Positions 17,590-59,437 of a stretch of DNA of 64,000 nucleotides are shown here, piece after piece. Source of the DNA: Bdellovibrionales bacterium (GTDB lineage Bacteria > Bdellovibrionota > Bdellovibrionia > Bdellovibrionales > CAYMLA01); assembly GCA_965217115.1 (NCBI GenBank), contig OZ244239.1, positions 864,001-928,000 on the forward strand. The letters run 5' to 3'. The notes under the pieces are model-generated. The model ran no database searches. It saw only the letters and a program-made list of their open reading frames with translations, and was not told the origin of the DNA. Every line of letters starts with the position of its first letter. Position 1 is the first letter of the stretch. A program made the position numbers and the translations under genes.

Positions 17590-17702
17590 GCTATTTTAAT
17601 GGGCTTTATTAGTTAGCTCAGACATGCGTTTGGCAGCGCCGCTCGCCATGCGAGCAGCGCACCAAGCCGAACTCGCTAAATAATAAAGCCCATTAAAATA
17701 GC
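17590..17702 (-). repeat. Hairpin element copy A (28-bp arms, 57-nt core), reverse orientation
   Basis: Arms 17590-17617 and 17675-17702 (1 mismatch). Core is the exact reverse complement of 18749-18805. Confidence 0.9.
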
Positions 17703-17741
17703 TCTCCTTGAAATCGCATTTGACTGGGAGCAACAGGGGGC

Positions 17742-18069
17742 CGGGGGCTGGGAACAACGGGGGCCGGAGGAGGGGGAATAACGGAAGCGGAGGAGGGGGA
17801 ACAACGGAAGCGGAGGAGGGGGAACAACGGGGGCGGAGGAGGGGGAACAACGGGGGCGGAGGAGGGGGAACAACGGGAGCGGAGGAGGGGGAACAACGGA
17901 ACCGGAGGAGGGGGAACAACGGGGGCGGAGGAGGGGGAACAACGGGAGAGGGAGAGGGACACTGCTCCCACACTCCGGCCCCCGCTGTTTGCTCGCCTCC
18001 GGACCCGCTGTTCCCCCGCCTCTGGACCCGCTGTTTCCCCGCCTCCGGGCCGCTGTTTGCTCGCCTCTC
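17742..18069. repeat. 23-bp G-rich tandem repeat (8 units) followed by ~4 related inverted C-rich units
   Basis: CGGAGGAGGGGGAACAACGGRRG units at 17765-17948; CCGCTGTT...CCTCCGGAC units at ~17982-18069. Confidence 0.9.
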
Positions 18070-18638
18070 AGGAAATAGATACTGGAGCAGCATTGACATC
18101 TTTAAAAACACCACAAAGCTGACTCCAAGTGGTTTTATCTTATTCTCTCAAAAATAAATTGCCCTATATATTCACCAGTATTTCTATGCACACCCTCTTT
18201 AAAATCCGTGTCCTATGTTCAAGATAGCTTAAGTCTATGTAAATTAATTATCAATTTAGCTAAATTAAAACTTGATGCCTCATCGGATTACTAGGTTAAT
18301 GATCTTCTTAACATCACTCAAATTTTCCTGGTCATTCCCTTAAAATCAATTTTGAAACCAATCAGGCTATGTGGAGCCCACATCTCATCTTCACATAATT
18401 CTTTGATCTTAAATCAAAACTATGTGTGACTCACCTTTTCCTCACCACCTTTTTGGGCATCTTTTTGATTCAATACTTCAAAATTTTCCAATCACTTTTT
18501 AATTGTTCTAAAACACAAAAACTCTCACTCTCCGCCAATGTTTATTATAAACAAAGACCTAACACCTCGATCCATCGAAAAGCCTCCAAAGAACTTTACA
18601 CAAACAGGTCTGGACAAGAATAAACTAATACTTTTTTT

Positions 18639-18843
18639 CCGCTGTCCCCTCTCCTCCGGCCCGCTGTCCCCCCTCCTCCGTCTCCGCTGTCCCCAGTCAA
18701 ATGCAGATTTCAAAGGAGGTTTTTTTAAATGCCCTTCTATTCTTTAGCGAGTTCGGCTTGGTGCGCTGCTCGCATGGCGAGCGGCGCTGCCAAACGCATG
18801 TCTGAGCTAAAGAATAGAAGGGCATTTAAAAAAACCTCCTTTG
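18639..18843 (+). repeat. Hairpin element copy B (perfect 38-bp arms) with C-rich leader
   Basis: Arms 18711-18748 and 18806-18843, core 18749-18805, CCGCTGTCCCC repeats at 18639-18694. Confidence 0.9.
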
Positions 18844-46932: not shown

Positions 46933-47304
46933 ATGATTCGAGGAATTCACGATTTTTACTATAACGTAAAAAATATGGAAAAAGCGGTTCAATTCTATAC
47001 TGAGACATTAAATATGAAAGTCACTCATGGGTCAGAACACTGGACAAGTCTTGACTGTGAAGGTGTCATGATAGGTCTACACTGGAGTGGGGGCAATGAT
47101 ATCCCATCTTTTCCAAGAGATTCTCATGGTGCTCATTGTGGTGGGACTTTGACTTTAGTTAGCGATAATATACCTGAAGATCGAAAAATTTTAGAAGCAG
47201 CAGGTTCTAAAATTTTAGGTGAAATGGATGAACTCTGGGGACATATGCTGATTTTTGAAGATATAGATGGCAATGTTCTTAAACTTCAAAACGCGAAGTA
47301 TTGA
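46933..47304 (+). CDS. VOC/glyoxalase-family protein
   Basis: VKNMEKAVQFYTETL, WGHMLIFEDIDGN. Confidence 0.85.
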   Translation: MIRGIHDFYYNVKNMEKAVQFYTETLNMKVTHGSEHWTSLDCEGVMIGLHWSGGNDIPSFPRDSHGAHCGGTLTLVSDNIPEDRKILEAAGSKILGEMDELWGHMLIFEDIDGNVLKLQNAKY

Positions 47305-47441
47305 GGAGCATATTTGAGCCAATTTAATTTACAGACTAATGGGGGAACCGCCCCCCTAACTCAAGTGAATGAGCCTGTTTTTTAAACCTAACCTCTTTGA
47401 CTAAGCCCTTAGTTTTTAATAAAAGGACACGCATCAATTTA

Positions 47442-48200
47442 TTAAAAATGATAAATTAGATTAATAGCATTTTTCCTATGTTTTACCTTTGCACCATTTC
47501 TGTTAAGGCTTCTAAAAGCATCTGCTTGAAATTCATGTCTAGAATAAACAAACTCTAAACTAAAACCATTATGAAAATTTAAGCCTGCTTTTAGTGCCCT
47601 GTAGCTTCCATCAACATCTGTCTCTCCTTTTGTTCCATATTCTGGATCACCTGGAACTCCGCTGTAGTAACTTTTCGTCCACTTACCCTTTGTTTTTGCA
47701 TAACCAGCTCCAACATAAGGGCTCACACCTCTTACTGCAGTAAATATATATAATCCACCAAAATAAATATCGATTGTCTCTACCTCAGATGAAGGTGAAT
47801 CAACAACGATATCTACTGGGCCGGTCGCAGTGTTTTGTGTAAACGCAGAACCGTCATCATGTTTCAAAGCAATCTCTTGTCTTGGAGACTTTATTCTTGT
47901 TTTATAAATTCCAACTTCATATCCCCAACCTGTTTCTGGAATATATCTTAGATTATAACCAAAAGACGTACTTCTCTCAATGAGTGCATCTAATATATTT
48001 GCATTTTCCTCTGTTATATCCTCTGGATTAGTGCCTATAAAGTGTCCATAATCCAAATGCTTACCTGTTATATCACTCGTTGAATCTCCCACACTGCTGC
48101 TAACAAGAAACCCATGTTTAAAGATTTCTTCAGCTTTTGCTTCCTGATTGTGTGTCACTGCTAAGATCATCGTCGCGAGAATAATTATATATGTGTGCAT
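47442..48200 (-). CDS. Outer-membrane beta-barrel protein
   Basis: Signal peptide, PYVGAGY, terminal YHF. Confidence 0.7.
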   Translation of the reverse strand: MHTYIIILATMILAVTHNQEAKAEEIFKHGFLVSSSVGDSTSDITGKHLDYGHFIGTNPEDITEENANILDALIERSTSFGYNLRYIPETGWGYEVGIYKTRIKSPRQEIALKHDDGSAFTQNTATGPVDIVVDSPSSEVETIDIYFGGLYIFTAVRGVSPYVGAGYAKTKGKWTKSYYSGVPGDPEYGTKGETDVDGSYRALKAGLNFHNGFSLEFVYSRHEFQADAFRSLNRNGAKVKHRKNAINLIYHF

Positions 48201-48412
48201 AACGGCCTCTCCTTCATTGGTCTCGTTCTATCTCTTTAGGAGAAGAAACTCTTAAAGAGCGATCAAACATTATTAGTTTAAACAAACCTGTCTAAGCTAG
48301 CTAAAAGGTTTTCACCCTCTCTTTTAACACAGAGCATCAAAAGATGCCACCTTTTTCCGCTCTTGAGAACTTTTTACAAAAAAGGGTTTTATGACTTATA
48401 CTCGGGGGCTTA

Positions 48413-49483
48413 TCAGATCAAGAGCTCTGGACGTCCTTCATATTTAGACGTCAATTGACCACAGGCTGCATAAATATCTCTACCCATGGTTTTACGTAAA
48501 AGAACATGAACTCCATTGTCCATTAATTCCTCGCGAAAGCGTTCCACCTGCCCATTGCTCGGTCGAACATAATCAGCATCCTCATGCTCATTAAAGGGAA
48601 TTATGTTCACCTTGCAGGGAATTGATTTAGCTATTTCAGCTAAACGTCTAGCGTCAGCAAGAGAGTCTGTCACTCCTTTAAGTAATACATACTCAACAGT
48701 CACCTTGTCCTTTGTGATTCTTGCGTGTTTTCGACAGGCCTCTAACAATTGTTCAATGGAGTGCTTTTTATTGATCGGCATAATCTCAGAACGAACGGCG
48801 TTGGAGCTACCATTGAGTGAAACAGCCAAACGCACTCTGGCTTGAGTGACCAATGGAATTTGCTCCACCAGACCAGAAGTTGATACTGTGATCTTCTTTC
48901 TTGATATATTCATCCCCCAAGGAGAGTGTAAAACTTCAATCGCTTTAAATACAGCTTCGGGATTATCAAGTGGCTCCCCCATTCCCATAAAAACAATATT
49001 CGTAATACGCTGACCCTCTTCTATAAGATTAGAAGCCCCAACAAACTGCCCGACAATTTCTCTGGCACTTAACCGTTTCTTTAGTTTTCTTTTGCCCGTA
49101 AAACAAAACTTACAACCAAGATTACAACCAACCTCCGATGACACACACAAAGTCAAACGCCCATCAGAAGGAATTAAAACAGCCTCGACCGTCATTGCTA
49201 CTTGACGATCATCAATCACTTCGCTGACATCAAAAAGAAACTTCTGTGTCCCATCCACACTGATTTTATGTTCCACAACTTTAGGCAAAGAAAAATTTAG
49301 CAACTGAGGCAACTCTTCGCGAAATTTTTTTGAAAGGTTCGTCATTTGCTCAACGTCAGTCACTCCTTTTTCATAAACCCATTTAAAAATCTGCTGAGCA
49401 CGAAACTTGGCCTTACCCAAAATCTCCAATCGACTTTGTAAATCATCCAAACTCAAATCATAAAAATAACTCTTTTCCTTCAA
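48413..49483 (-). CDS. rlmN: 23S rRNA/tRNA m2A methyltransferase
   Basis: CNLGCKFC, FMGMGEP, DIYAACGQL. Confidence 0.95.
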   Translation of the reverse strand: MKEKSYFYDLSLDDLQSRLEILGKAKFRAQQIFKWVYEKGVTDVEQMTNLSKKFREELPQLLNFSLPKVVEHKISVDGTQKFLFDVSEVIDDRQVAMTVEAVLIPSDGRLTLCVSSEVGCNLGCKFCFTGKRKLKKRLSAREIVGQFVGASNLIEEGQRITNIVFMGMGEPLDNPEAVFKAIEVLHSPWGMNISRKKITVSTSGLVEQIPLVTQARVRLAVSLNGSSNAVRSEIMPINKKHSIEQLLEACRKHARITKDKVTVEYVLLKGVTDSLADARRLAEIAKSIPCKVNIIPFNEHEDADYVRPSNGQVERFREELMDNGVHVLLRKTMGRDIYAACGQLTSKYEGRPELLI

Positions 49484-49589
49484 TCAGCCCTCCACCAAAG
49501 CCCTCTCCTTCTACCACAAACACCAAAATATCTCACCAAAACCCCCTTTAATAATCCATTCTAATCATTTTTTAAGAATTTATTTCACA

Positions 49590-49775
49590 CCCCCCTCCGT
49601 TATTCCCTCCGTTATTCCCCCCGTTGTTCCCAGTCCCCGCAAGTTTTCAAATAAATGGTTCAAAGGGTCTTTCATCTTCAAGCGAGTTCGGATTGGTGCG
49701 CCGCTCGCAAAGCGAGCCGCGCTGCCGAACGAATGTCTGAGCTTGAAGATGGAAGACCCTTTGAACCATTTATTT
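49590..49775 (+). repeat. Hairpin element copy C1 (35-bp arms) with C-rich leader
   Basis: Arms 49649-49683 and 49741-49775, core 49684-49740. Confidence 0.9.
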
Positions 49776-49839
49776 CAGACCCAGCTCCCCAAAACCCATG
49801 TTATAGAGAACCATCTTATACAATTCTACTGGGAGAAAT

Positions 49840-49914
49840 AAAGCCCTAGGTAAATAATCAGCCTCTAGCCGACAAGGCTAAGATTTGACGACGTACAAAA
49901 TAAATTATTCCATT
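49840..49914 (+). repeat. 75-bp direct repeat J1 (left copy)
   Basis: Matches 51831-51905 with 1 mismatch. Confidence 0.92.
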
Positions 49915-50779
49915 ATTCAAGTGAACGTAGACATTTGGCAACTTTTTTCATTTCTGAGCTTTCTGTAGATGATTTTGACTTAACAATATAAACATCTCTT
50001 TTGATGGGCTTAAAGCCACTTGGGAAATTTTTCTGATATAGCTTATAATCATCTTTAACAATTTGATTGTGAATTTTGGCAATAAAATTTGGAAGATAAA
50101 TAACACATAATCCACTCCTTGAAAGTTCTATTGCACTTTCGAGAGTATCAACTCTATGTTGAATTAAGCGTGGAAACTCATGCTCCGGCCAACCATCAAG
50201 CCCTTTGACACCTGACGGAGCCCCTTTTATTGGTTGTATGGGAGCTACAAAAGGTATTTCCTGAAAATTTAAATTATTAAAAGAACCTTTTGTTCCGTAA
50301 ATTGACATTTGAACTTTTGAAATTTTTAAAAAATCTACCCCAGGAGTTGGGATAGGCTCATATGTTATTCCAAAATCTACTATCTTTTTTGCAACAAATT
50401 CTTCTAATTCTCCCTGTCTGGTTTCATAGAGATCTAATTTATAAGTTTCCAACAATGGCTTCAACTTCTTTAAAAAATACGTGCTAAAGACCTCAAATGT
50501 TGCTATTTTAATATTACTTGATTCAGCTTTTTTATTTATTACACTTAAATCTTCTATTTGATTGATGATGTTCTTAGCTCTCTTATAAATAACTACTGCT
50601 TCATTGGAGGGCACTATACCTCGGCCTTCGGGTAAAAATAGTTCAAAACCCAGTTCTTCTTCTAATACTTTCAGTGACTTAGACAGCGCACCATGGCTCA
50701 TTCCTATTAGATCAGCGGCACTTCTTAACCCACCAGTTTCAACAACCGTACAAAATTGCTTAAGCCTATTGGTCTCCAT
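49913..50779 (-). CDS. LysR-family transcriptional regulator
   Basis: METNRLKQF..GGLRSAADLIGMSHGALSKSLKVLEEELG HTH; true start ATG 50779. Confidence 0.9.
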   Translation of the reverse strand: METNRLKQFCTVVETGGLRSAADLIGMSHGALSKSLKVLEEELGFELFLPEGRGIVPSNEAVVIYKRAKNIINQIEDLSVINKKAESSNIKIATFEVFSTYFLKKLKPLLETYKLDLYETRQGELEEFVAKKIVDFGITYEPIPTPGVDFLKISKVQMSIYGTKGSFNNLNFQEIPFVAPIQPIKGAPSGVKGLDGWPEHEFPRLIQHRVDTLESAIELSRSGLCVIYLPNFIAKIHNQIVKDDYKLYQKNFPSGFKPIKRDVYIVKSKSSTESSEMKKVAKCLRSLE

Positions 50780-50883
50780 ATAGAAACAGATATATAAAAT
50801 AATTCGATATACGGCAACAATAAAAATGAATATATTCCGACCTTCTTGAGAAATCAATAAAGGTCTAAAACCGAGGAGGAGAT

Positions 50884-51249
50884 ATGAAAACAATAATTTT
50901 ATTATGTTTATTGATAGGGTCACAGCATATTTTTGCTGCCAGTTGTGACATTGAAAAAGGGCACTACTTAATATTAAAGGTTGATCAACTAAAGGTAAAA
51001 GTAGATTCTTGTGACCCAACTCCAGGGTGGGGCCAGGGAAGAGCTCATTTTGCTACATTTGATAAAAATGATTTAGCTCGAGCAAAGCGAGAACTACTTA
51101 CCAAGCATCACCCCCTGATACCTGACCGTTGTCAATTACTAGGAACAGGTGATATTGAAATTATAAGTAATCGTAGTCTTTGTAGCTTCTCAGGGGTAGA
51201 CGAAGCAACAGCAAATTTCACCGTAAGATATAAGTGTCACTTATTCTGA
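50884..51249 (+). CDS. Small secreted Cys-containing protein
   Basis: GAGGAG RBS, signal peptide, divergent from LysR. Confidence 0.75.
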   Translation: MKTIILLCLLIGSQHIFAASCDIEKGHYLILKVDQLKVKVDSCDPTPGWGQGRAHFATFDKNDLARAKRELLTKHHPLIPDRCQLLGTGDIEIISNRSLCSFSGVDEATANFTVRYKCHLF

Positions 51250-51330
51250 TTTAATGTAACTGTTCCTTTAATTCTGTGCAGAGGACGGTATGCTAATAAA
51301 TGTATTTAATAGAGTTAAGGGAAGTGAGAC

Positions 51331-51840
51331 ATGTTATCAAATTTTAAGTTAATTGAATTTTCATCAATAATGTTACTTATTCTAGGTAGTCTCTCTTTTG
51401 CAGGAGTTAAAAACGAAGAGGTTATCTATAAAAAATTGATTCTCAAAGCCAGTAAAGAACAGATTTGGTCTACATTGACTGATCAAAATGAACTGGGCAA
51501 ATGGTGGAATAAAGGAGTCAGACTTGAACCATATGTCGGTGGACAATTCTATGAACCTTGGGGAGAGGGGCAATTAGCCACTGGGAAAGTAGTAGATTTA
51601 AAATTTCAAAAGTTTATAAAGTTTACTTGGAAAGAGAAGTATTGGAATTCTTCTGAAAGTACAGTTTGTACATTTTTTCTAGAGAAAGTAGAAAAAGGGA
51701 CGGTCTTAAAAATTCATCATTCTGGCTGGGAGTCTATTAAAGAATTAAGTAAAAGAAAAAAACTAATTGAAGGATTTCAGAAGGGCTGGGACCTTCTTTT
51801 ACCAAAATTGAAGAAATATGTTGAATCGGAAAAGCCCTAG
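51331..51840 (+). CDS. SRPBCC/AHSA1-like domain protein with signal peptide
   Basis: ASKEQIWSTLTD..LGKWW, IKFTW, GTVLKIHHSGW, GWDLLL. Confidence 0.85.
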   Translation: MLSNFKLIEFSSIMLLILGSLSFAGVKNEEVIYKKLILKASKEQIWSTLTDQNELGKWWNKGVRLEPYVGGQFYEPWGEGQLATGKVVDLKFQKFIKFTWKEKYWNSSESTVCTFFLEKVEKGTVLKIHHSGWESIKELSKRKKLIEGFQKGWDLLLPKLKKYVESEKP

Positions 51841-51905
51841 GTAAATAATCAGGCTCTAGCCGACAAGGCTAAGATTTGACGACGTACAAAATAAATTATT
51901 CCATT
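51831..51905 (+). repeat. 75-bp direct repeat J1 (right copy)
   Basis: Matches 49840-49914; contains the TAG stop of 51331..51840. Confidence 0.92.
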
Positions 51906-51917
51906 GGATTATCAGAT

Positions 51918-52508
51918 ATGAATACTAAAAAAGAAAGTTGGAATGATTATTACAAAAAAATAAGCAGAAAACCTCCTAGCCTATTACTTAAGGTGGCCTT
52001 AAATGAGGTTAAGCAGATTGGTATTGCTTATGACTTAGGGGCTGGAGCAGGAGTTGACTCAAAATTTCTAGCCAAACAAGGTTGGAATGTTTTTGCTGTA
52101 GATAAAGAACCGTCATCTATTAATTTTATTAGGAAAATCAAAACAGTGAGAGGTGATATTAAACCTGTTTTATCTAACTTTGAAGAATTAACTCTTCAAA
52201 AAGCCCATCTTATATTTGCATCATTTTCTTTACCGTTTTGTAGCCCGTGTAAATTTCCATTTTTATGGAACAAAATACAATCATCACTGGTCGGCGGGGG
52301 CATATTGGCTGGAACATTGCTTGGAAATAACGATAGTTGGGTCAAAGATTCTAACGGAGGAATGACATTTCAAACAAATAAACAGATTCTCGATTTATTT
52401 GAAGATTATGAAATTTTATATTTCGATGAACAGGAAGAGGATCGTCCAACGGCTCTAGGAAAGCAAAAGCACTGGCATGTATACAGTTTTGTAGTCCGAA
52501 AACACTAG
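51918..52508 (+). CDS. Class I SAM-dependent methyltransferase (TehB-like)
   Basis: AYDLGAGAGVDS, VFAVD, FSLPF, KHWHVY; probable ATG at 51918. Confidence 0.85.
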   Translation: MNTKKESWNDYYKKISRKPPSLLLKVALNEVKQIGIAYDLGAGAGVDSKFLAKQGWNVFAVDKEPSSINFIRKIKTVRGDIKPVLSNFEELTLQKAHLIFASFSLPFCSPCKFPFLWNKIQSSLVGGGILAGTLLGNNDSWVKDSNGGMTFQTNKQILDLFEDYEILYFDEQEEDRPTALGKQKHWHVYSFVVRKH

Positions 52509-52613
52509 GTTCTGAGGCGAATTAAAAATCACAAAGCTCAGGCTTTTAAGATGCCTCCCGTAAAGAAGATGAAAGCCCCTTTGAACCAACCTTATCTACC
52601 AAAAGTTAAGTCC
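52504..52613 (+). repeat. Junction repeat J2 plus half-arm of the hairpin element
   Basis: Near-identical to 55449-55559; first 39 bp also occur at 54598-54636. Confidence 0.9.
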
Positions 52614-52622
52614 TCTCTTTAA

Positions 52623-52800
52623 CCCCCGCTGTTCCCCCCGTTGTTCCCAATCCCCGCTGTTCCCAGTCCACGCAAGTTTTCAAATAAATAGTTCAAAGGG
52701 TCTTTTATCTTCAAGCGAGTTCGGATTGGTGCGCCGCTCGCAAAGCGAGCTGCGCTGCCGAACGAATGTCTGAGCTTGAAGATGAAAGCCCCTTTGAACC
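52623..52800 (+). repeat. Hairpin element copy C2 with C-rich leader
   Basis: Arms 52691-52716 and 52774-52799, core 52717-52773. Confidence 0.9.
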
Positions 52801-53060
52801 ACGCCTTATTTGCCAAAAGTTAAGTTCTCTATTTAGTCCCCAACCTCTCAGCCAAAGCCTCTTTTTAAAACTCTAAATTGACAATCTACGCAAGGGGTTA
52901 GACACCTCAAAAACTCTCAGGCATCGATAAATTGATGTCTAAGCTATTTTCTCCATGGCATAGAATATGCTGTCTAAAGTCTTGAAATTAATGGTATCAG
53001 TCTGATTTAGGAGAATTAAATGAAAAAATTATTATTTTTAACAACTATTATTTTGAGGGT

Positions 53061-53339
53061 ATGCCTGTGAGATTAGTAAGAACTATCACTATCGCTTTAA
53101 GTATTTTTTTGAGCTTTGCTGTGTTAGCAAGCGACTATGAGTGTTCAGGATTATTTATGAAGTGCTCTGAAGGAGAAGAAATACATCACCTTACTAGATT
53201 GTCAGAATCTGAATGTAGTGGATCATATGAGGGATGTAGGCAGTACTTAAAAAACGAATTAAAGAACTTACGGAAAGTAAAAAAAACTGAAGTGTTTTGC
53301 TATTTCGATGAATACCGTAACGAAGCTATCTGTTTATAA
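53061..53339 (+). CDS. Small secreted Cys-rich protein
   Basis: Signal peptide, 6 Cys in the mature part. Confidence 0.65.
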   Translation: MPVRLVRTITIALSIFLSFAVLASDYECSGLFMKCSEGEEIHHLTRLSESECSGSYEGCRQYLKNELKNLRKVKKTEVFCYFDEYRNEAICL

Positions 53340-53604
53340 CTAGATTAGTAAAGATGGTTTAAGATGTAAAATACACTCAGCAGGAATACTCTCTGCAAAG
53401 ATAAGAGTTCTTTGCAGCAGCTTGAACAAAGAAATTTCTTTTTCACCTAAGGTTTCTTCTAAAACATGATCCAAAATATACGAGCCAAACGAATGCCTGA
53501 GCTTAAAGATGAAAGCCCCTTTGAACCAACCTTATCTACCAAAAGTTAAGTTCTCTATTTAGTCCTTAAGATCCCACCAAACAAGGCACACACCCCGCCC
53601 CTTG

Positions 53605-53754
53605 CCCCCGCTGTTCCCAGTCCCCGCAAGTTTTCAAATAAATGGTTCAAAGGGTCTTTTATCTTCAAGCGAGTTCGGATTGGTGCGCCGCTCGCAAAGC
53701 GAGCCGCGCTGCCGAACGAATGTCTGAGCTTGAAGATGGAAGACCCTTTGAACC
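53605..53754 (+). repeat. Hairpin element copy C3
   Basis: Arms 53644-53670 and 53728-53754, core 53671-53727; preceded by a half copy at 53484-53527. Confidence 0.9.
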
Positions 53755-54156
53755 AGCCTTACCTACCAAAAGTTAAGTCCTCTCTTTAGTCTGCTGCCCC
53801 AGAAAAAACTCTTTTTAAAACTCTAAACTGACAATCTGTGCAAGGGATTAGACACCTCAGAAAAGCTCAGTTACCGATAGATTTATGTCTGAGCTGTTTT
53901 TTCGATGAGCGGTAAATAATTGATCCCCAGCCAACAGGACTAGAATATCATAGCGAGGCCACTGGAAAGTGGTCTTTTTCCTTTGGGGCCGGAAAACGTC
54001 ACTTCTAAAAGCAATCCCCGAAAAAATTGAAAAATTTACATCACTCGATGATTTTCCCCTTAAAAGTGCACGAATCAGTTATAATAATTCAAACAATATC
54101 AATCAAATTTAAGAGAATTTGTCCCCCAAGGAAATAGAACGATATCAAGAGGAGAA

Positions 54157-54567
54157 ATGATGAAAAAAATATTAATTGGTTTAACTCTTTTAATGTCCGT
54201 TACAGTTTTTGCTGAGAAAAGGATTATCACCTGCTCAAATACGGCTATCACAGTTCATTCGGAGAATATTATCGGAGGGGAATTCACTGTGACGCCTTCT
54301 AAAGGAATTCAGCATAAACTAACTATCAAATTGGAAGGAGGAGCAGATTCAATTTTTTGGGCTACTTCAGACACTTCTCAAGAACAACTTTTTGCTGGAG
54401 GCATCATGCATAATGCCAGTAGCTTAACCATGTTTCCTGGCGGTAATAAAGCAATGTTGTCCTTCGAAGGCGATATTTATCCTTTGGTGTGTGATAAAAA
54501 ATGGAGTACTGAGTTGAGTAAATGGCTTGAAGAATGGCACCAAAGGGAGAAAAGGTGGTCTTGGTAG
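54157..54567 (+). CDS. Hypothetical secreted protein
   Basis: GAGGAG RBS, classic signal peptide MKKILIGLTLLMSVTVFA. Confidence 0.75.
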   Translation: MMKKILIGLTLLMSVTVFAEKRIITCSNTAITVHSENIIGGEFTVTPSKGIQHKLTIKLEGGADSIFWATSDTSQEQLFAGGIMHNASSLTMFPGGNKAMLSFEGDIYPLVCDKKWSTELSKWLEEWHQREKRWSW

Positions 54568-54690
54568 TAAACTCATTAACTAGACAGATTTTTTTTCACT
54601 AGGTTCTGAGGCTAATTAAAAATCACAAAACTCAGGAACTCTAAACGAATCGAACAAATAAACCATTAGTTTATCGAGGATAGAAAGACT

Positions 54691-55449
54691 TTGAGATTAC
54701 TTTTAATATTGTTTTTTTCTGCATTTATATTTAGTGATACCTCTTGGGCTTCTTCTTCATGTGCAGACTTTCTCGGGAGTTCATTCAGAAGTGAAAGTCG
54801 TGTTATTACGACCGATACAATAGTTAAAAAAAGTGATGCTCCCATCTTAATGAAAGATATTTTAGGTTTTGTATATTACACTAAATTAAATTGGAAAAAT
54901 TTTATATCTAAACATCGAAGAAAGGTTCGTTTATATGATACTGATTGGAGCAGAGAGAATTTCCTTAAGGAACAATTACTCTTACCTAAAGACTTAAAGC
55001 CTGATGAGCGAAAGATTATCTTAAAAATAAAGAGAGAGACATCACCGGAATCAAAACATTATAAAAAGGCGCAAGAATTAGAAGGGACTCCAGATATTAT
55101 TGGAGTTGAGTCTGCTATTTTGAAAATTAAACTTAAAAGCAACGACATTTATTATGCTGAACACACTTCAAATAGAGAGACATCAATAAAAGTTCAAGAT
55201 ATTCTTTCAGCATTATCTGGAATAGGAAGAAAAAAGAATTTCTCGCCAAATGATATTGCAGAATTACACTTTTTCCATAATCATCCAGGAATAACTCAAC
55301 CTATCTCAAAGCCTGATGTGGGAGTTGCCAAGAAATTTGTAAAAATTTTTGGTGATAATAATCCCGATTTTAAATTTCACATGTATGCAATTAGTTTTGA
55401 AAATAGTCTTCGTCCAACACTTATCTTTCATGCTGGGTTTCAGAATTGA
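54691..55449 (+). CDS. Secreted protein with C-terminal JAB/MPN-like motif
   Basis: Signal peptide; GVESAIL...FFHNHPGITQPISKPD. Confidence 0.65.
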   Translation: MRLLLILFFSAFIFSDTSWASSSCADFLGSSFRSESRVITTDTIVKKSDAPILMKDILGFVYYTKLNWKNFISKHRRKVRLYDTDWSRENFLKEQLLLPKDLKPDERKIILKIKRETSPESKHYKKAQELEGTPDIIGVESAILKIKLKSNDIYYAEHTSNRETSIKVQDILSALSGIGRKKNFSPNDIAELHFFHNHPGITQPISKPDVGVAKKFVKIFGDNNPDFKFHMYAISFENSLRPTLIFHAGFQN

Positions 55450-55557
55450 CTAGGTTCTGAGGCGAATTAAAAATCACAAAGCTCAGGCTTTTAAGATGCC
55501 TCCCGCAAAGAAGATGAAAGCCCCCTTTGAACCAACCTTATCTACCAAAAGTTAAGT

Positions 55558-55749
55558 CCGTTGTTCCCCCGCTGTTCCCCATTGTCCCCCCCCCTGTTCC
55601 CCCCGCTGTTCCCAGTCCCCGCAAGTTTTCAAATAAATGGTTCAAAGGGTCTTTTATCTTCAAGCGAGTTCGGATTGGTGCGCCGCTCGCAAAGCGAGCC
55701 GCGCTGCCGAACGAATGTCTGAGCTTGAAGATGGAAGACCCTTTGAACC
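55558..55749 (+). repeat. Hairpin element copy C4 with C-rich leader
   Basis: Arms 55639-55665 and 55723-55749, core 55666-55722. Confidence 0.9.
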
Positions 55750-55817
55750 AGCCTTATCTACCAAAAGTTAAGTCCTCTATATAGGCCTTAAGCCCCCCAC
55801 CGAACACCCCATACCTT

Positions 55818-55964
55818 CGCTGTTCCCAGTCCACGCAAGTTTTCAAATAAAATGGTTCAAAGGGTCTTTCATCTTCAAGCGAGTTCGGATTGGTGCGCCG
55901 CTCGCAAAGCGAGCTGCGCTGCCGAACGAATGTCTGAGCTTGAAGATGGAAGACCCTTTGAACC
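55818..55964 (+). repeat. Hairpin element copy C5, 4 bp from the rfaE stop
   Basis: Arms 55854-55880 and 55938-55964, core 55881-55937. Confidence 0.9.
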
Positions 55965-55968
55965 AGCC

Positions 55969-57009
55969 TTATCTGCCAGAAGTTAAGTTCTCTATGTAGG
56001 CCTTAAGCCCCCCCCCCGAACAAGGTACACACCCCACCTTACCCACAACAAACCCCGCTGCAAAATTAGACAAAACACAGGAATCTAATAGTGACAATTG
56101 AGCTGCCTTTGCTAACGCTAAAGTTGCTACCACAGTATCCCCCGCCCCCGTCACATCAAAAACCTGACGGGCATAGGTGGGAACAATGTTCACTTGTTCT
56201 GCGCTGTAAAGAACCATTCCTTCACTTCCCCGAGTTAAAACCAATTCATCGGCGCCTATTTTATCACGAATTCTCTGTCCTAAATTTAAAATAGCCTGCT
56301 CATCTTGCCAACAACGATCAAAAGATTCTCCCAAAAGAGTTAAACTCTCCTCAAAATTGGGCTTAAATAGATTCGCCCCGCGATAAAAATCCAGGGGAGT
56401 CTCTCGATGGGGGTCAATTAAAACTTGCTTAGAAGATGACTTGGCAATGAGCAAAATTTCTTGAATCAAAGTCTCATTCAACAGTCCTTTGGCGTAATCC
56501 TGTAAAACAACCGCTTGGCACTGATCAATATTATCCTTGATCACTTGCAATATCTTCCTATGAACACTCTCACTGATATCCTGACGACGCTCATAATCAA
56601 CGCGCACAATGTGATTATGACCTGTCATAACTCGAGCTTTACGTGTCGTTGGACGGCAGGAGTCTTCCACAAGATATTGACCTTCAATTCCCTCTCTCTC
56701 TAAAATATCACGTAACTTATCAGCTCCTTGGTCCTTTCCAATCACTGAAACAAGAATAGGATAACCCCCCAAACCGACAATATTATGAGCTACATTGGCC
56801 GCCATCCCCAGACGAGTATCTTCTTTTTTAACCTCTAGAACTGGCACTGGAGCTTCTGGGCTAATTCTGCGCACATCACCAGTGATATATTCATCCAACC
56901 CACAATCACCTACCACTAAGATTCTCTTATCTGACAGAGTTTCAACTTGTTGTAAGAGCTTCGGTAAAAGTTCTTTACCTGGAATAGAGCTTTGAAAGGG
57001 CTTTAACAT
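55969..57009 (-). CDS. rfaE: D-glycero-beta-D-manno-heptose-7-phosphate kinase (RfaE domain I/HldA)
   Basis: RISPEAPVPV, QDYAKG, VFDVTGAGDTV. Confidence 0.9.
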   Translation of the reverse strand: MLKPFQSSIPGKELLPKLLQQVETLSDKRILVVGDCGLDEYITGDVRRISPEAPVPVLEVKKEDTRLGMAANVAHNIVGLGGYPILVSVIGKDQGADKLRDILEREGIEGQYLVEDSCRPTTRKARVMTGHNHIVRVDYERRQDISESVHRKILQVIKDNIDQCQAVVLQDYAKGLLNETLIQEILLIAKSSSKQVLIDPHRETPLDFYRGANLFKPNFEESLTLLGESFDRCWQDEQAILNLGQRIRDKIGADELVLTRGSEGMVLYSAEQVNIVPTYARQVFDVTGAGDTVVATLALAKAAQLSLLDSCVLSNFAAGFVVGKVGCVPCSGGGLKAYIENLTSGR

Positions 57010-57194
57010 CTTATTTGTGTCTCCTTAATTTAAAAACAAACACACTCTCTCACCTTATCAATAAAATGACAGCAACAGTAACAATTTTCCTCTTTTTTAC
57101 AAGAAAACCTCTCGACGAAGAAGAAAAATAACAATATCCTTTTGAGTGTTTAATAAAGGTTTTTAAATAGATTCTTCCTTGGAGGAGCTCATTC

Positions 57195-58457
57195 ATGGAT
57201 AAACTACTCAAAGGTCAGTTTTTTGAAAACACCCTCCGCTCACTCGAAAATGCAGGCCGAGTTATCAACATAGACCCCAACGTTATGGAGCGTCTTAAAT
57301 ATCCTAAAAGATGTATCATTATGAGTATCCCCATCCGCATGGACGACTACAGTGTTAAAGTCTTCACTGGATACCGCGTTCAGCACAACTCCACACTTGG
57401 ACCATTTAAAGGGGGTATTCGTTACCATCAAAATGTGACTCTTAGTGAAGTCGCAGCGTTATCCACTCTTATGACTTTTAAGAATTCTCTCCTAGGTCTT
57501 CCTCTAGGAGGAGGTAAGGGTGGCGTGACAGTTGACCCCACGCAGCTCTCTAAGACAGAAAAACAAAATCTCACTCGGCGTTACGCCAGTGAACTGAGCA
57601 CCTTTATTGGCCCACGCACAGATATCCCAGCGCCAGATGTTGGAACAACTCCACAAACCATGGCTTGGTTTATGGATACGTACTCTCAAGAGACAGGCCT
57701 TGCACAACCAGGGTGTGTCACTGGAAAACCTGTCGCTATCGGTGGAACTGAAGGTCGGGCTGGCGCCACAGGACTTGGAGTTGTTTACTGCACCGAACGA
57801 GCCTGGCAGAAATTAGGTCGGAAAATGTCTGAGGTATCAATCGCCATACAGGGTTTTGGAAATGTTGGCCAAAATGCCGCTCTCTATAGCCACCGTCTTG
57901 GTTCTAAAGTTATCGCTGTCAGTGATGTCTTTGGAGGCTTTTATGACCCTGAAGGACTCGATATACCAGGTATGATCGAATATGCAAAAGCATACAAGTC
58001 TCTTAAAGGATACTCCAAAGGGGCTGCCATTTCCAACGAAGAACTTCTGCATTTAGACGTAGACTCTCTTTTGCCTTGCGCCCTTGAGGGAGTGATTCAC
58101 AAGGATAATTTTGACAAGGTCAAAGCAAAAATGATTGTCGAAGGAGCCAACGGGCCTTGCACTATCGAAGCCAGTAAAGCCCTACGAGAAAAAAATGTTC
58201 ACATCATCCCTGATGTTCTTGCCAATGGCGGAGGTGTAGTTGTCAGTTACTTTGAGTGGGTGCAGGATGCCACTTCTTCCCTCTTTTGGGGAGAAACTGA
58301 GGTCAATCGTCGTCTAGAAACCATCATGCACAAAGCATTTGATACAGTTTGGGCATTTTCAGAAGAAAAAAATTTAGATATGAGATTATCCGCAATGTCC
58401 GTTTCTGTTAAACGCCTTGAACGTGCCACTCTTATGCGAGGGCTTTATCCTAGATAA
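57195..58457 (+). CDS. gdhA: Glutamate dehydrogenase (Glu/Leu/Phe/Val family)
   Basis: GPFKGGIRY, GGGKGG, DIPAPDV, QGFGNVG, VSYFEW. Confidence 0.92.
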   Translation: MDKLLKGQFFENTLRSLENAGRVINIDPNVMERLKYPKRCIIMSIPIRMDDYSVKVFTGYRVQHNSTLGPFKGGIRYHQNVTLSEVAALSTLMTFKNSLLGLPLGGGKGGVTVDPTQLSKTEKQNLTRRYASELSTFIGPRTDIPAPDVGTTPQTMAWFMDTYSQETGLAQPGCVTGKPVAIGGTEGRAGATGLGVVYCTERAWQKLGRKMSEVSIAIQGFGNVGQNAALYSHRLGSKVIAVSDVFGGFYDPEGLDIPGMIEYAKAYKSLKGYSKGAAISNEELLHLDVDSLLPCALEGVIHKDNFDKVKAKMIVEGANGPCTIEASKALREKNVHIIPDVLANGGGVVVSYFEWVQDATSSLFWGETEVNRRLETIMHKAFDTVWAFSEEKNLDMRLSAMSVSVKRLERATLMRGLYPR

Positions 58458-58465
58458 AGTAACTG

Positions 58466-59437
58466 ATGATGCTCTGGTCGTTTGTTCCCCCAAAAATAGC
58501 CCATGACATAGCTCCCTATGCCCTAAAGGCCTATACATTTTTTTCTAAAGCAGAGCCCGTAGCATGTAATTCTTTTTCATGGCGTGGTCTTCACTTTCCT
58601 AATCGCTTAGGGATTGCGGGAGGTGTCGATAAAACAGCTTCGAGTATTATTCCCTGGTGGAAACTCGGTGCTGGTTTTATTGAAGTTGGCACTGTCACCC
58701 CCCAACCTCAAAAACCCAATTCAGGAAAAATCCTTATTCGTGATGAACAACAAAGAGCTCTGTGGAATAAGATGGGGTTCCCAAGCCCTGGTTCTGAAAC
58801 AGTCCTCAAAAATCTTAAAAAAATCCCCTCCAAAAGACTCTCTCCCATCTTTATTAATATTGGCAAAAACCGTCAAACAGAGAGTCACAACGCTCATGAA
58901 GACTACAGTCAACTCGTTCATTTATTTCAAAACTATGCTGATGCTTTTGTTATCAATATCAGTAGCCCAAATACAGAGGGCTTACGCTCTTTGCAAGAAC
59001 CGGAAACTATTCACAAACTCATCTCTCAATGCCAAAAATTCAATAAGAAAAACATTCCAGTTCTTATAAAGTTTAGTCCCGATCTACACAGAGAAAAACT
59101 CAAAGAAAATCTCTTGGCCTCCTTAGAGGCAAATATTGATGGGTGGATTCTAACAAACACCACTACTGATCGTACGAACACCCCTCATCTACCCAAGGAA
59201 GGGGGTGTTTCAGGCACTCCACTCACTCAACTTTCACGGAAAAAACTCGAAGAAACAATTGATATTTTAGGCACTCAGAAAGAAGGAAAGCTTCTCATCT
59301 CAACAGGAGGCATCATGGGCGCAGAAGAGGCCGATCTTAGATTAGACATGGGTGCTGATCTGATTCAATTCTACTCAGCCCTTGTCTTTAAAGGGCCTCG
59401 TTTTTTTAAAGACGTCACTCAATTTTGGATAAAATAA
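58466..59437 (+). CDS. pyrD: Quinone-dependent dihydroorotate dehydrogenase
   Basis: GIAGGVDK, EVGTVTP, NISSPNT, TNTT, GGVSG. Confidence 0.9.
   Translation: MMLWSFVPPKIAHDIAPYALKAYTFFSKAEPVACNSFSWRGLHFPNRLGIAGGVDKTASSIIPWWKLGAGFIEVGTVTPQPQKPNSGKILIRDEQQRALWNKMGFPSPGSETVLKNLKKIPSKRLSPIFINIGKNRQTESHNAHEDYSQLVHLFQNYADAFVINISSPNTEGLRSLQEPETIHKLISQCQKFNKKNIPVLIKFSPDLHREKLKENLLASLEANIDGWILTNTTTDRTNTPHLPKEGGVSGTPLTQLSRKKLEETIDILGTQKEGKLLISTGGIMGAEEADLRLDMGADLIQFYSALVFKGPRFFKDVTQFWIK

Follow-up and report, generated by a model that had tools for sequence, protein, structure and literature searches.

A palindromic-repeat-scaffolded accessory islet between rlmN and rfaE in a Bdellovibrionales bacterium, probably shaped by local duplication rather than integron-like capture

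What builds a row of unrelated small genes on one recurring hairpin scaffold, laid out like an integron but with no integron integrase in sight? This question is raised by the interval between rlmN and rfaE in a stretch of 64,000 nucleotides (nt) from the genome of a Bdellovibrionales bacterium (assembly GCA_965217115.1, contig OZ244239.1, positions 864,001 to 928,000 of the forward strand), which we refer to as the window and in whose coordinates positions are given unless stated otherwise. Copies of a hairpin element of ~140–200 nt, designated E, lie here among seven low-GC cargo genes set between conserved genes, and a preliminary description of the sequence had taken this arrangement for an undescribed gene-capture platform. 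We show that E is an undescribed, order-wide family of structured palindromic repeats, and we consider it probable that the rlmN-rfaE interval is a repeat-scaffolded accessory islet, one of 18 in the genome, that was put together by local duplication and not by integron-like capture.

The local array, numbered cluster 9 of E, contains five full elements on the + strand, each counted as a 197-nt unit: E1 (49606–49802), E2 (52639–52835), E3 (53593–53789), E4 (55588–55784) and E5 (55803–55999). They are 81–100% identical, and each has inverted arms of 28–35 nt (reaching 35 nt in E1) with 57 nt between them. Allowing up to three mismatches, the window has 11 occurrences of the 28-nt arm, and 100 dinucleotide-preserving shuffles have none; the repeating hairpin scaffold reported earlier is thus real. 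Three further + strand copies, at 52544–52638, 53484–53599 and 55488–55557, are truncated at the 5′ side and retain the right arm and tail, preceded in the second by the 3′ part of the core. The E4-E5 unit, of 215 nt, carries no cargo. This empty unit, the shared direction of six of the seven cargo genes, which are encoded on the + strand, and the position of several stop codons at repeat boundaries can all be read directly from the sequence, as had been claimed.

E is dispersed over the home genome, a single contig of 2.17 Mb, in which one E copy retrieves 72 BLAST matches and an iterated nhmmer profile finds 77 non-overlapping copies in 18 clusters of 1–8 copies each. Alignment of 52 full copies gives a constant order of parts, comprising a C-rich run, box A (CCGYTGTTCCCAGTC), a left arm of ~25 nt, a strongly conserved core of ~60 nt (a bulged, GC-rich hairpin in its own right), a right arm that is the complement of the left one, and box B. 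The whole folds into an imperfect hairpin of roughly 45 bp, whose apical core is conserved and asymmetric and whose arms are locus-specific and compensating, that is, near-identical inside a cluster and different between clusters with complementarity kept. Nineteen conserved genes serve as anchors: the terminal E has its box-B end −3 to 34 nt away from their stop codons, and such a gene is usually one partner of a convergent pair. Copies inside one array share one orientation, which is independent of the replichores as inferred from GC skew. The C-rich runs are tandem 12-mers (CCGYTGTTCCCC-like) of variable number, seen at 49597–49632, 52614–52649 and 55558–55614, the last running into box A of E4, and at most E copies genome-wide; these iteron-like 12-mers lead into box A in the home-genome copies and are not found in aligned E of other genomes.

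The predicted structure is supported by covariation. RNAalifold predicts 46 pairs in 31 E sequences, 32 of them with compensatory changes. In an alignment of 34 sequences from at least six genomes or metagenome contigs, standard pairs occupy 92.5% of cells versus 72.6% in shuffles, changes on both sides are seen at 33 of 47 pairs, and the covariation score of 0.533 (0.176 for shuffled alignments, 0.08–0.19 for slid partners) is reached by none of 500 shuffles. Three G:U pairs of the apical domain are held on one strand in 34, 31 and 24 of the 34 sequences; the G:U pairs of the outer stem show no strand bias (88/2014 versus 134/1970). The same core, with other but perfectly complementary arms, is present in further Bdellovibrionales, namely one metagenome-assembled genome, genomes G011 and G005, and nine metagenome contigs. 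When run against 151 genomes of the order, a covariance model made from the 34-sequence alignment detects E in 21, which belong to 18 of 69 genera; several genomes have 8–22 scored copies, counts that are lower bounds, as up to 22 candidates per genome were scored. The sole genome of the same family, G001 (670 contigs), has one match, and most copies in other genomes are solitary or stand beside housekeeping genes. Rfam returned no match in window positions 47000–59000 at an E-value of up to 1, E found no counterpart in phage or plasmid sequence collections, and a full-text literature search returned nothing on repeats of this sort in Bdellovibrio or Bacteriovorax. What is undescribed, then, is the repeat family; a dedicated capture platform, the other half of that earlier claim, found no support, as set out below.

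E was also considered as an intrinsic terminator and rejected, since on either strand the stem is preceded by the T-run and followed by the A-run. A terminator scan of the interval returned 5 sites versus 5.8 expected from shuffles, none of them on an E hairpin.

Filled and empty sites of E can be recognised in other genomes. In G121, E lies in a spacer of ~230 nt between two convergent stop codons, whose distance in two congeners is ~25 nt; at another site E and a gene for a 165-amino-acid (aa) secreted protein occupy the space between cdd and apt, two genes that are neighbours in two congeners. The third case is from genus g11, where G021 has E between the gene for a sigma factor and tRNA-Met and eight aligned congeners lack it there. 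Judged from these alignments, E behaves like inserted DNA, alone or together with a gene, the congeners compared being 65–84% identical in DNA, a distance at which insertion ends and target duplications are not definable. No two of the six G121 copies examined share the same arms. At the site that E occupies in G021, another g11 genome, G173, carries a different long palindrome (L089, ~2600–2760) whose centre is a classic bidirectional terminator of A-run, GC stem and T-run; convergent or 3′ spacers in the order seem to collect several kinds of long palindrome.

Copies of the 3′ end of rfaE follow E2, E3, E4 and the three partial E copies of the interval, each spanning 30–70 nt from the rfaE stop codon: 34 nt after E2, 31 nt after E3, 54 nt after E4, 30 nt in the truncated element at 52544–52638, which also carries a C-run, and 70 nt in that at 53484–53599. 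E1 has no such tail. The anchor gene itself encodes an rfaE/hldE-type sugar kinase (55969–57009, − strand; Pfam PfkB) whose 3′ end abuts E5, the box-B end of this terminal element overlapping the last rfaE codons. Homologues align up to residue 342 of 346, the C-terminal LKAYIENL aligning with LKSELERL and LESYMIQL in two homologues of 40–41% identity, and because homologues align through the C-terminus the tails are copies of genuine coding sequence. The earlier reading of these tails as rfaE copies therefore holds in part: the first ~20 nt of each is E's own box B (...TTTGCCAAAA...), which is found genome-wide, so that only bases past box B are rfaE-specific. Such anchor-specific tail copies were found at two of the 19 anchor genes, the other being a KdsD-like gene in cluster 15.

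Cluster 15 repeats the grammar of the rlmN-rfaE interval three times, E followed by 78–96 nt of the coding end of the KdsD-like anchor, a leader and cargo, and closes with a last E and the real gene. Its cargo genes are paralogous (60–96% aa identity) and its duplicated blocks span genes, with 96% identity over 719 nt and 92% over 965 nt, which is the outcome of a tandem duplication whose breakpoints lie upstream of the leader and in the anchor 3′ end. The preliminary description had named plain tandem duplication of paralogues as the outcome that would speak against capture, and here the clusters differ: duplicated cargo occurs in clusters 4, 6, 15 and 16, and in cluster 9 there is none, the repeated blocks being restricted to the spacers between cargo genes. 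These spacers combine E with a leader and with two further modules, J2 and D7, described below. Positions 52566–52957 match 53506–53907 at 82% over 406 nt, continuously across the tail-leader junction, and 52495–52855 match 55440–55804 at 88% over 371 nt, continuously across J2, half-E, C-run, E and tail. Since these alignments run on across the junctions, the junctions arose once and were then copied. Shorter matches complete the picture: 49538–49768 is 85% identical to 55517–55750, the truncated-E region at 53484–53599 is 85% identical to 55921–56038, and the 142-nt core of E4 (55609–55750) is identical to that of E3, the whole 197-nt units of the two being 96% identical. No such duplication is shorter than the E4-E5 unit of 215 nt.

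From these alignments we propose that nested tandem segmental duplications copied a block of C-run, E, the last 30–70 nt of rfaE, leader and cargo, each duplicated unit having one breakpoint inside the rfaE 3′ end, and that recombination among the copies would have left the truncated elements and the empty unit. The cargo would be accessory genes gained or replaced one by one, most likely through general recombination, homologous or illegitimate, and less likely through dedicated site-specific capture; the leader, J2 and E modules would offer portable homology for such replacement.

The islet is modular and its cargo genes are unrelated, as was noted from the start. Next to rlmN lies the gene for a LysR-family regulator (49913–50779, − strand; Pfam HTH_1 and LysR_substrate; GC 34.1%), the sole cargo gene on the opposite strand. 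It is followed on the + strand by genes for a 121-aa protein (p121; 50884–51249) with a hydrophobic N-terminus, no Pfam match and no paralogue, an AHSA1/SRPBCC-fold protein (51331–51840; Pfam AHSA1, 2.2e-17), a TehB-like S-adenosylmethionine methyltransferase (51918–52508; Pfam TehB/Methyltransf_25), a 92-aa Cys-rich protein (p92; 53061–53339) and a 136-aa protein (p136; 54157–54567), both with hydrophobic N-termini, and a 252-aa protein (p252; 54691–55449) with an HxH...S..D (JAB/MPN-like) motif. No family scored over its cut-off for p92, p136 or p252. The methyltransferase probably starts at ATG 51918, the listed open reading frame (ORF) beginning at TTG 51876, inside D7. Five of the seven proteins have signal peptides, as judged by eye from their N-termini. 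Cargo GC content is 31.6–38.7% versus 41–46% in the flanks, and that at third codon positions 22–36% versus 36–39%. The stop codons of the methyltransferase, p252, SRPBCC, LysR and rfaE genes coincide with repeat edges or lie at most 3 nt from them. The left conserved flank, rlmN (48413–49483, − strand; Pfam Radical_SAM and RlmN_N), has its 5′ end toward the islet and is separated from E1 by a degenerate remnant resembling a right arm and tail, with a C-rich 12-mer run (49538–49605, + strand), recognised by self-BLAST.

One cargo gene has a traceable relative. A search of 5.8 billion clustered proteins gave p252 just one relative, encoded in genome G077 of another family of the order (L069, 9341–10273) between pgpA and cinA-recA. 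The two are 77% identical as proteins and 82.6% in DNA over 656 nt, the match covering the coding sequence only, against 36–68% for housekeeping proteins of the two genomes; G077 has no E, and its p252 relative has no flanking leader or J2. Because this relative is far closer than the housekeeping proteins and the match is confined to coding sequence, p252 looks like a gene moved by recent horizontal transfer, independently of the scaffold.

The remaining scaffold parts are not peculiar to this interval: leader, J2 and D7 are, like E, each dispersed genome-wide. The leader is a putative promoter/5′ untranslated region (5′UTR) module of ~215 nt with its 5′UTR. It has 17 BLAST matches genome-wide (69–100% identity, with copies mostly 82–97% identical), of which two lie in this interval and most lie outside E clusters; copies were seen at about 576, 773, 829, 845, 1674, 1716, 1816–1822, 1912 and 2120 kb of the genome. 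An ORF follows 15 of the 16 leader copies checked, most with a hydrophobic N-terminus, which suggests one regulon; several ORF sets outside the window annotation, it should be said, are crude six-frame calls. Leader 1 (52854–53060, + strand) precedes p92 and leader 2 (53804–54156, + strand) precedes p136, and their upstream parts (52854–52957 and 53804–53907) are 83% identical. Leader 2 is broken by ~235 nt of dispersed repeats, composed of a D7-like piece (53911–53942) and a 92-nt repeat family, and the 5′UTR end picks up again near 54092. A dispersed repeat at 596 kb of the genome matches 53999–54093 at 81%. Recurrent motifs are an inverted TTAGACA/TGTCTAA pair and TGGCAT-N5-ATGCT. The latter, a −24/−12-like motif, led us to consider a sigma-54 promoter, an idea set aside because the motif is imperfect in most copies: at −12, where the first copy has ATGCT, the majority have ATGTA. 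Behind the ribosome-binding site of leader 1 lies a 16-codon ORF starting MKK (53020–53070), out of frame with p92, which starts at 53061. It looks like a remnant of a replaced cargo gene, with an MKK start like that of other leader-driven genes; A6 and T5 runs within it might permit frame switching.

J2 has about 10 copies genome-wide by BLAST and D7 about 9 partial ones, and both are in part shown to be dispersed modules at gene 3′ ends. The three J2 copies of the interval lie on the + strand at 52503–52565, with the methyltransferase stop codon in its first bases, at 54595–54636 (partial), and at the beginning of 55446–55557, where J2 is followed by a truncated E (right arm) and a tail copy. 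D7 is a terminator-like module of 75 nt, present on the + strand at 49840–49914, with the LysR stop codon at its end and a terminator-like hairpin on the − strand (49881–49858) found by the terminator scan, and at 51831–51905, with the SRPBCC stop codon inside. These two copies are 99% identical (74/75 nt), and as direct repeats with two genes' stop codons on their edges they bracket LysR, p121 and SRPBCC. D7 members elsewhere in the genome are only 77–90% identical.

Several observations weigh against local duplication as the whole account. The E cores of cluster 9 are 96–100% identical, versus 82–88% for the surrounding scaffold blocks, and this excess requires gene conversion or more recent turnover of E. 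BLASTP and tBLASTN gave no paralogue in the home genome for any of the seven cargo genes, and duplication alone is therefore insufficient, which is why a replacement step is assumed. In clusters 2, 4, 5, 9, 12 and 15, 25 of 26 cargo ORFs, from crude ORF calls, are co-oriented with E and have E at their 3′ side, a rule not followed in clusters 6 (3 of 5) and 16 (1 of 3). The insertion of E with a secreted-protein gene as a single event in G121 means that E may travel with cargo, and the invariant asymmetric bulge and one-strand G:U pairs of the core suggest recognition by some factor. Finally, the D7 pair could mark a recent insertion by recombination, or gene conversion. The nearest rfaE loci, on genome contigs, are 40–41% identical and have neither rlmN nor any cargo gene there, and metagenome contigs contain no relative of the interval. 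Contigs from four public runs of one sample, probably the source, break at repeats with no piece spanning the stretch, and one contig joins 52690 to 53645 (E2-E3) across 60 ambiguous nt, a join that may or may not reflect a variant.

The first alternative holds that E is a functional structured RNA or DNA hairpin at gene ends, serving for instance as a 3′-UTR stabiliser, processing site, antisense RNA or protein-binding site, and that the array merely followed when genes were duplicated with the regulatory ends attached to them. The strong covariation with a core invariant across genera, the one-strand G:U conservation in an apical domain and the fixed orientation to neighbouring genes speak in its favour. 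It has to contend with an outer stem that lacks G:U strand bias, with the failure of E as an intrinsic terminator, with the lack of an Rfam match and with tandem empty copies that it hardly accounts for, and we regard it as unlikely.

Equally improbable in our judgement is that E is a non-autonomous element of the MITE type (miniature inverted-repeat transposable element), its transposase lost or unseen, with new copies preferring old copies or gene 3′ ends. Correia elements are described as palindromes of 100–200 nt without transposase, intergenic and often at gene ends, singly or arrayed (PMC3898611). E resembles them in being palindromic, intergenic and variable in presence between related genomes, at three sites between congeners, and its patchy distribution over 18 of 69 genera and its many intergenic copies at stop codons would suit a mobile repeat. 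Enterobacterial repetitive intergenic consensus (ERIC) sequences are MITE-like palindromic repeats of the same Correia-like kind and share these likenesses. The decisive difference lies in what is conserved: E copies share the centre and not the termini, the reverse of a MITE recognised by its transposase, and terminal inverted repeats common to all copies are absent from the loci of the home genome (G000) and from the six G121 copies. In addition, no target-site duplication is definable at the filled and empty sites of congeners at this distance, the six Pfam families searched yielded no transposase but one rve, and near-identical copies inside a cluster with copied flanks fit duplication better than insertion. 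Repetitive extragenic palindromic (REP) sequences are several times shorter than E. REP units and the bacterial interspersed mosaic elements (BIMEs) they form, associated with REP-associated tyrosine transposases (RAYTs), are reported as extragenic palindromes in mosaic arrays at gene 3′ ends (PMC2817692), and E is likewise clustered, extragenic and at gene 3′ ends; E copies in an array, however, run in one direction and do not alternate, and no Y1_Tnp/RAYT is encoded in the home genome.

A dedicated cassette system, the proposal from which we started, fares worse, and we give it an outside chance. It would make E the recombination site of a system without integron integrase, in which a recombinase acting in trans, be it XerC/XerD, the lone phage-type integrase or some other protein, moves cargo plus E at anchor 3′ ends. 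The statement that the locus lacks intI and an attC consensus is borne out. The home genome encodes three tyrosine recombinases, one XerC-like, one XerD-like and one of generic phage type at 743 kb; their best score against the integron-integrase model TIGR02249 is 120.7 bits with a cut-off of 265, and none of 151 genomes of the order exceeds that cut-off. The home-genome search for such enzymes covered PF00589, PF01797, PF00239, PF00665, PF01548 and PF01609 and found, besides these three, one truncated resolvase and one rve and no Y1_Tnp/RAYT, IS110 or DDE_Tnp_1 transposase. None of the genes found adjoins an E cluster, and no recombinase ORF lies in or beside the rlmN-rfaE interval. No dif-like motif was seen at up to seven mismatches, a result that carries little weight as the motif was not based on the local dif site.

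Integron cassettes are expressed from a common promoter, Pc. Integron attC sites end in boxes of the consensus RYYYAAC/GTTRRRY, and on reading the aligned arms of E we found no conserved motif of this form at the arm ends. Clusters of attC sites lacking integrase (CALINs) are known, cassettes are said rarely to carry promoters, and attC sites are described as keeping their R and L boxes at the stem base while the terminal structure varies in sequence and length (PMC4889954). Like integrons and CALINs, the array has empty units and genes that run in one direction, with an imperfect palindrome behind each of them; as in CALINs, no integrase is near. Unlike them, it keeps the apical core and varies the base where attC keeps the base and varies the tip, two of its cargo units have a promoter-like (putative) leader, its units carry copies of the coding end of the flanking gene, and IntI is lacking in the home genome and throughout the 151 genomes of the order. 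The likeness is thus one of layout only, the testable defining features of integrons being absent.

Site-specific exchange would sit well with co-oriented cargo having E at its 3′ side, with empty units and truncated elements at unit ends, with a conserved asymmetric hairpin core as expected of a protein-recognised site, with the joint insertion of E and a cargo gene in G121 and with low-GC, unrelated cargo. Other features tell against it. The arms are locus-specific, and therefore units of E plus cargo have not been exchanged between arrays recently; tail copies of two of the 19 anchors are not predicted by site-specific recombination at E; whole units with paralogous cargo have been duplicated elsewhere in the genome, as cluster 15 illustrates; the foreign relative of p252 shares coding sequence only, with no E, J2 or leader; E elsewhere is mostly solitary or flanks housekeeping genes; and no candidate recombinase is co-located with the arrays. 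On these grounds the notion of a dedicated capture platform is not supported. It had further been asked whether E brackets orphan genes at other loci, and most of the 18 clusters are placed around small ORFs with hydrophobic N-termini; cluster 13 departs from this. There, at genome positions 1657349–1665287, two inverted E copies lie 7.6 kb apart and enclose housekeeping-looking genes (glmU- and glmS-like N-termini, a response regulator) besides small secreted proteins, from which it follows that E pairs do not always surround accessory cargo. Cluster 8, the second E locus in the window (17595–18830), is likewise an inverted pair (E at 17595–17729 on the − strand and at 18691–18830 on the + strand), each copy adjoining a conserved gene, with ~960 nt inside that hold no convincing gene.

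A last variant, in which E and its box-A iterons form a site for a trans-acting factor and gene 3′ ends serve as landing pads for swapping secreted-protein genes together with leader and terminator modules, is a long shot too, kept alive by the invariant asymmetric core, the box-A iterons, the excess identity of E cores and the joint G121 insertion.

Local duplication with piecemeal replacement of cargo has its closest known counterparts, by analogy, in Neisseria. Neisserial intergenic mosaic elements (NIMEs), built of dRS3 and RS repeats, are described as intergenic short-repeat arrays of 200–2700 bp, flanked by conserved genes and neighbouring genes for surface or secreted proteins, with a proposed role in promoting recombination and the exchange of genes; in the same account, minimal mobile elements (MMEs) are sites at which differing whole-gene cassettes occupy the space between two conserved genes through homologous recombination alone (PMC3898611). 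The arrangement of the 18 E clusters, most of them around small ORFs with hydrophobic N-termini, is alike in organisation and not by homology. The two also differ, in that E is one long hairpin (130–190 nt) with a kept centre and variable arms where NIMEs have 20-bp dRS3 sequences around RS, and no phage or IS110-type enzyme is associated with E. MMEs, for their part, are defined by cargo variation from strain to strain.

Read in the ordinary way, these results describe a new family of covarying palindromic repeats, present in Bdellovibrio-like bacteria of 18 genera among the 69 sampled, which in the home genome marks 18 hot spots where genes for small proteins with signal-peptide-like N-termini duplicate and turn over. 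They also carry the warning that an integron-like layout can come from tandem duplication of a gene with its regulatory ends. Should the landing-pad variant hold true, E would be part of an integron analogue for the secretome of a predator, operating without integron integrase, and would open a new route of cassette exchange to bacteria in which classical mobile elements are very few.

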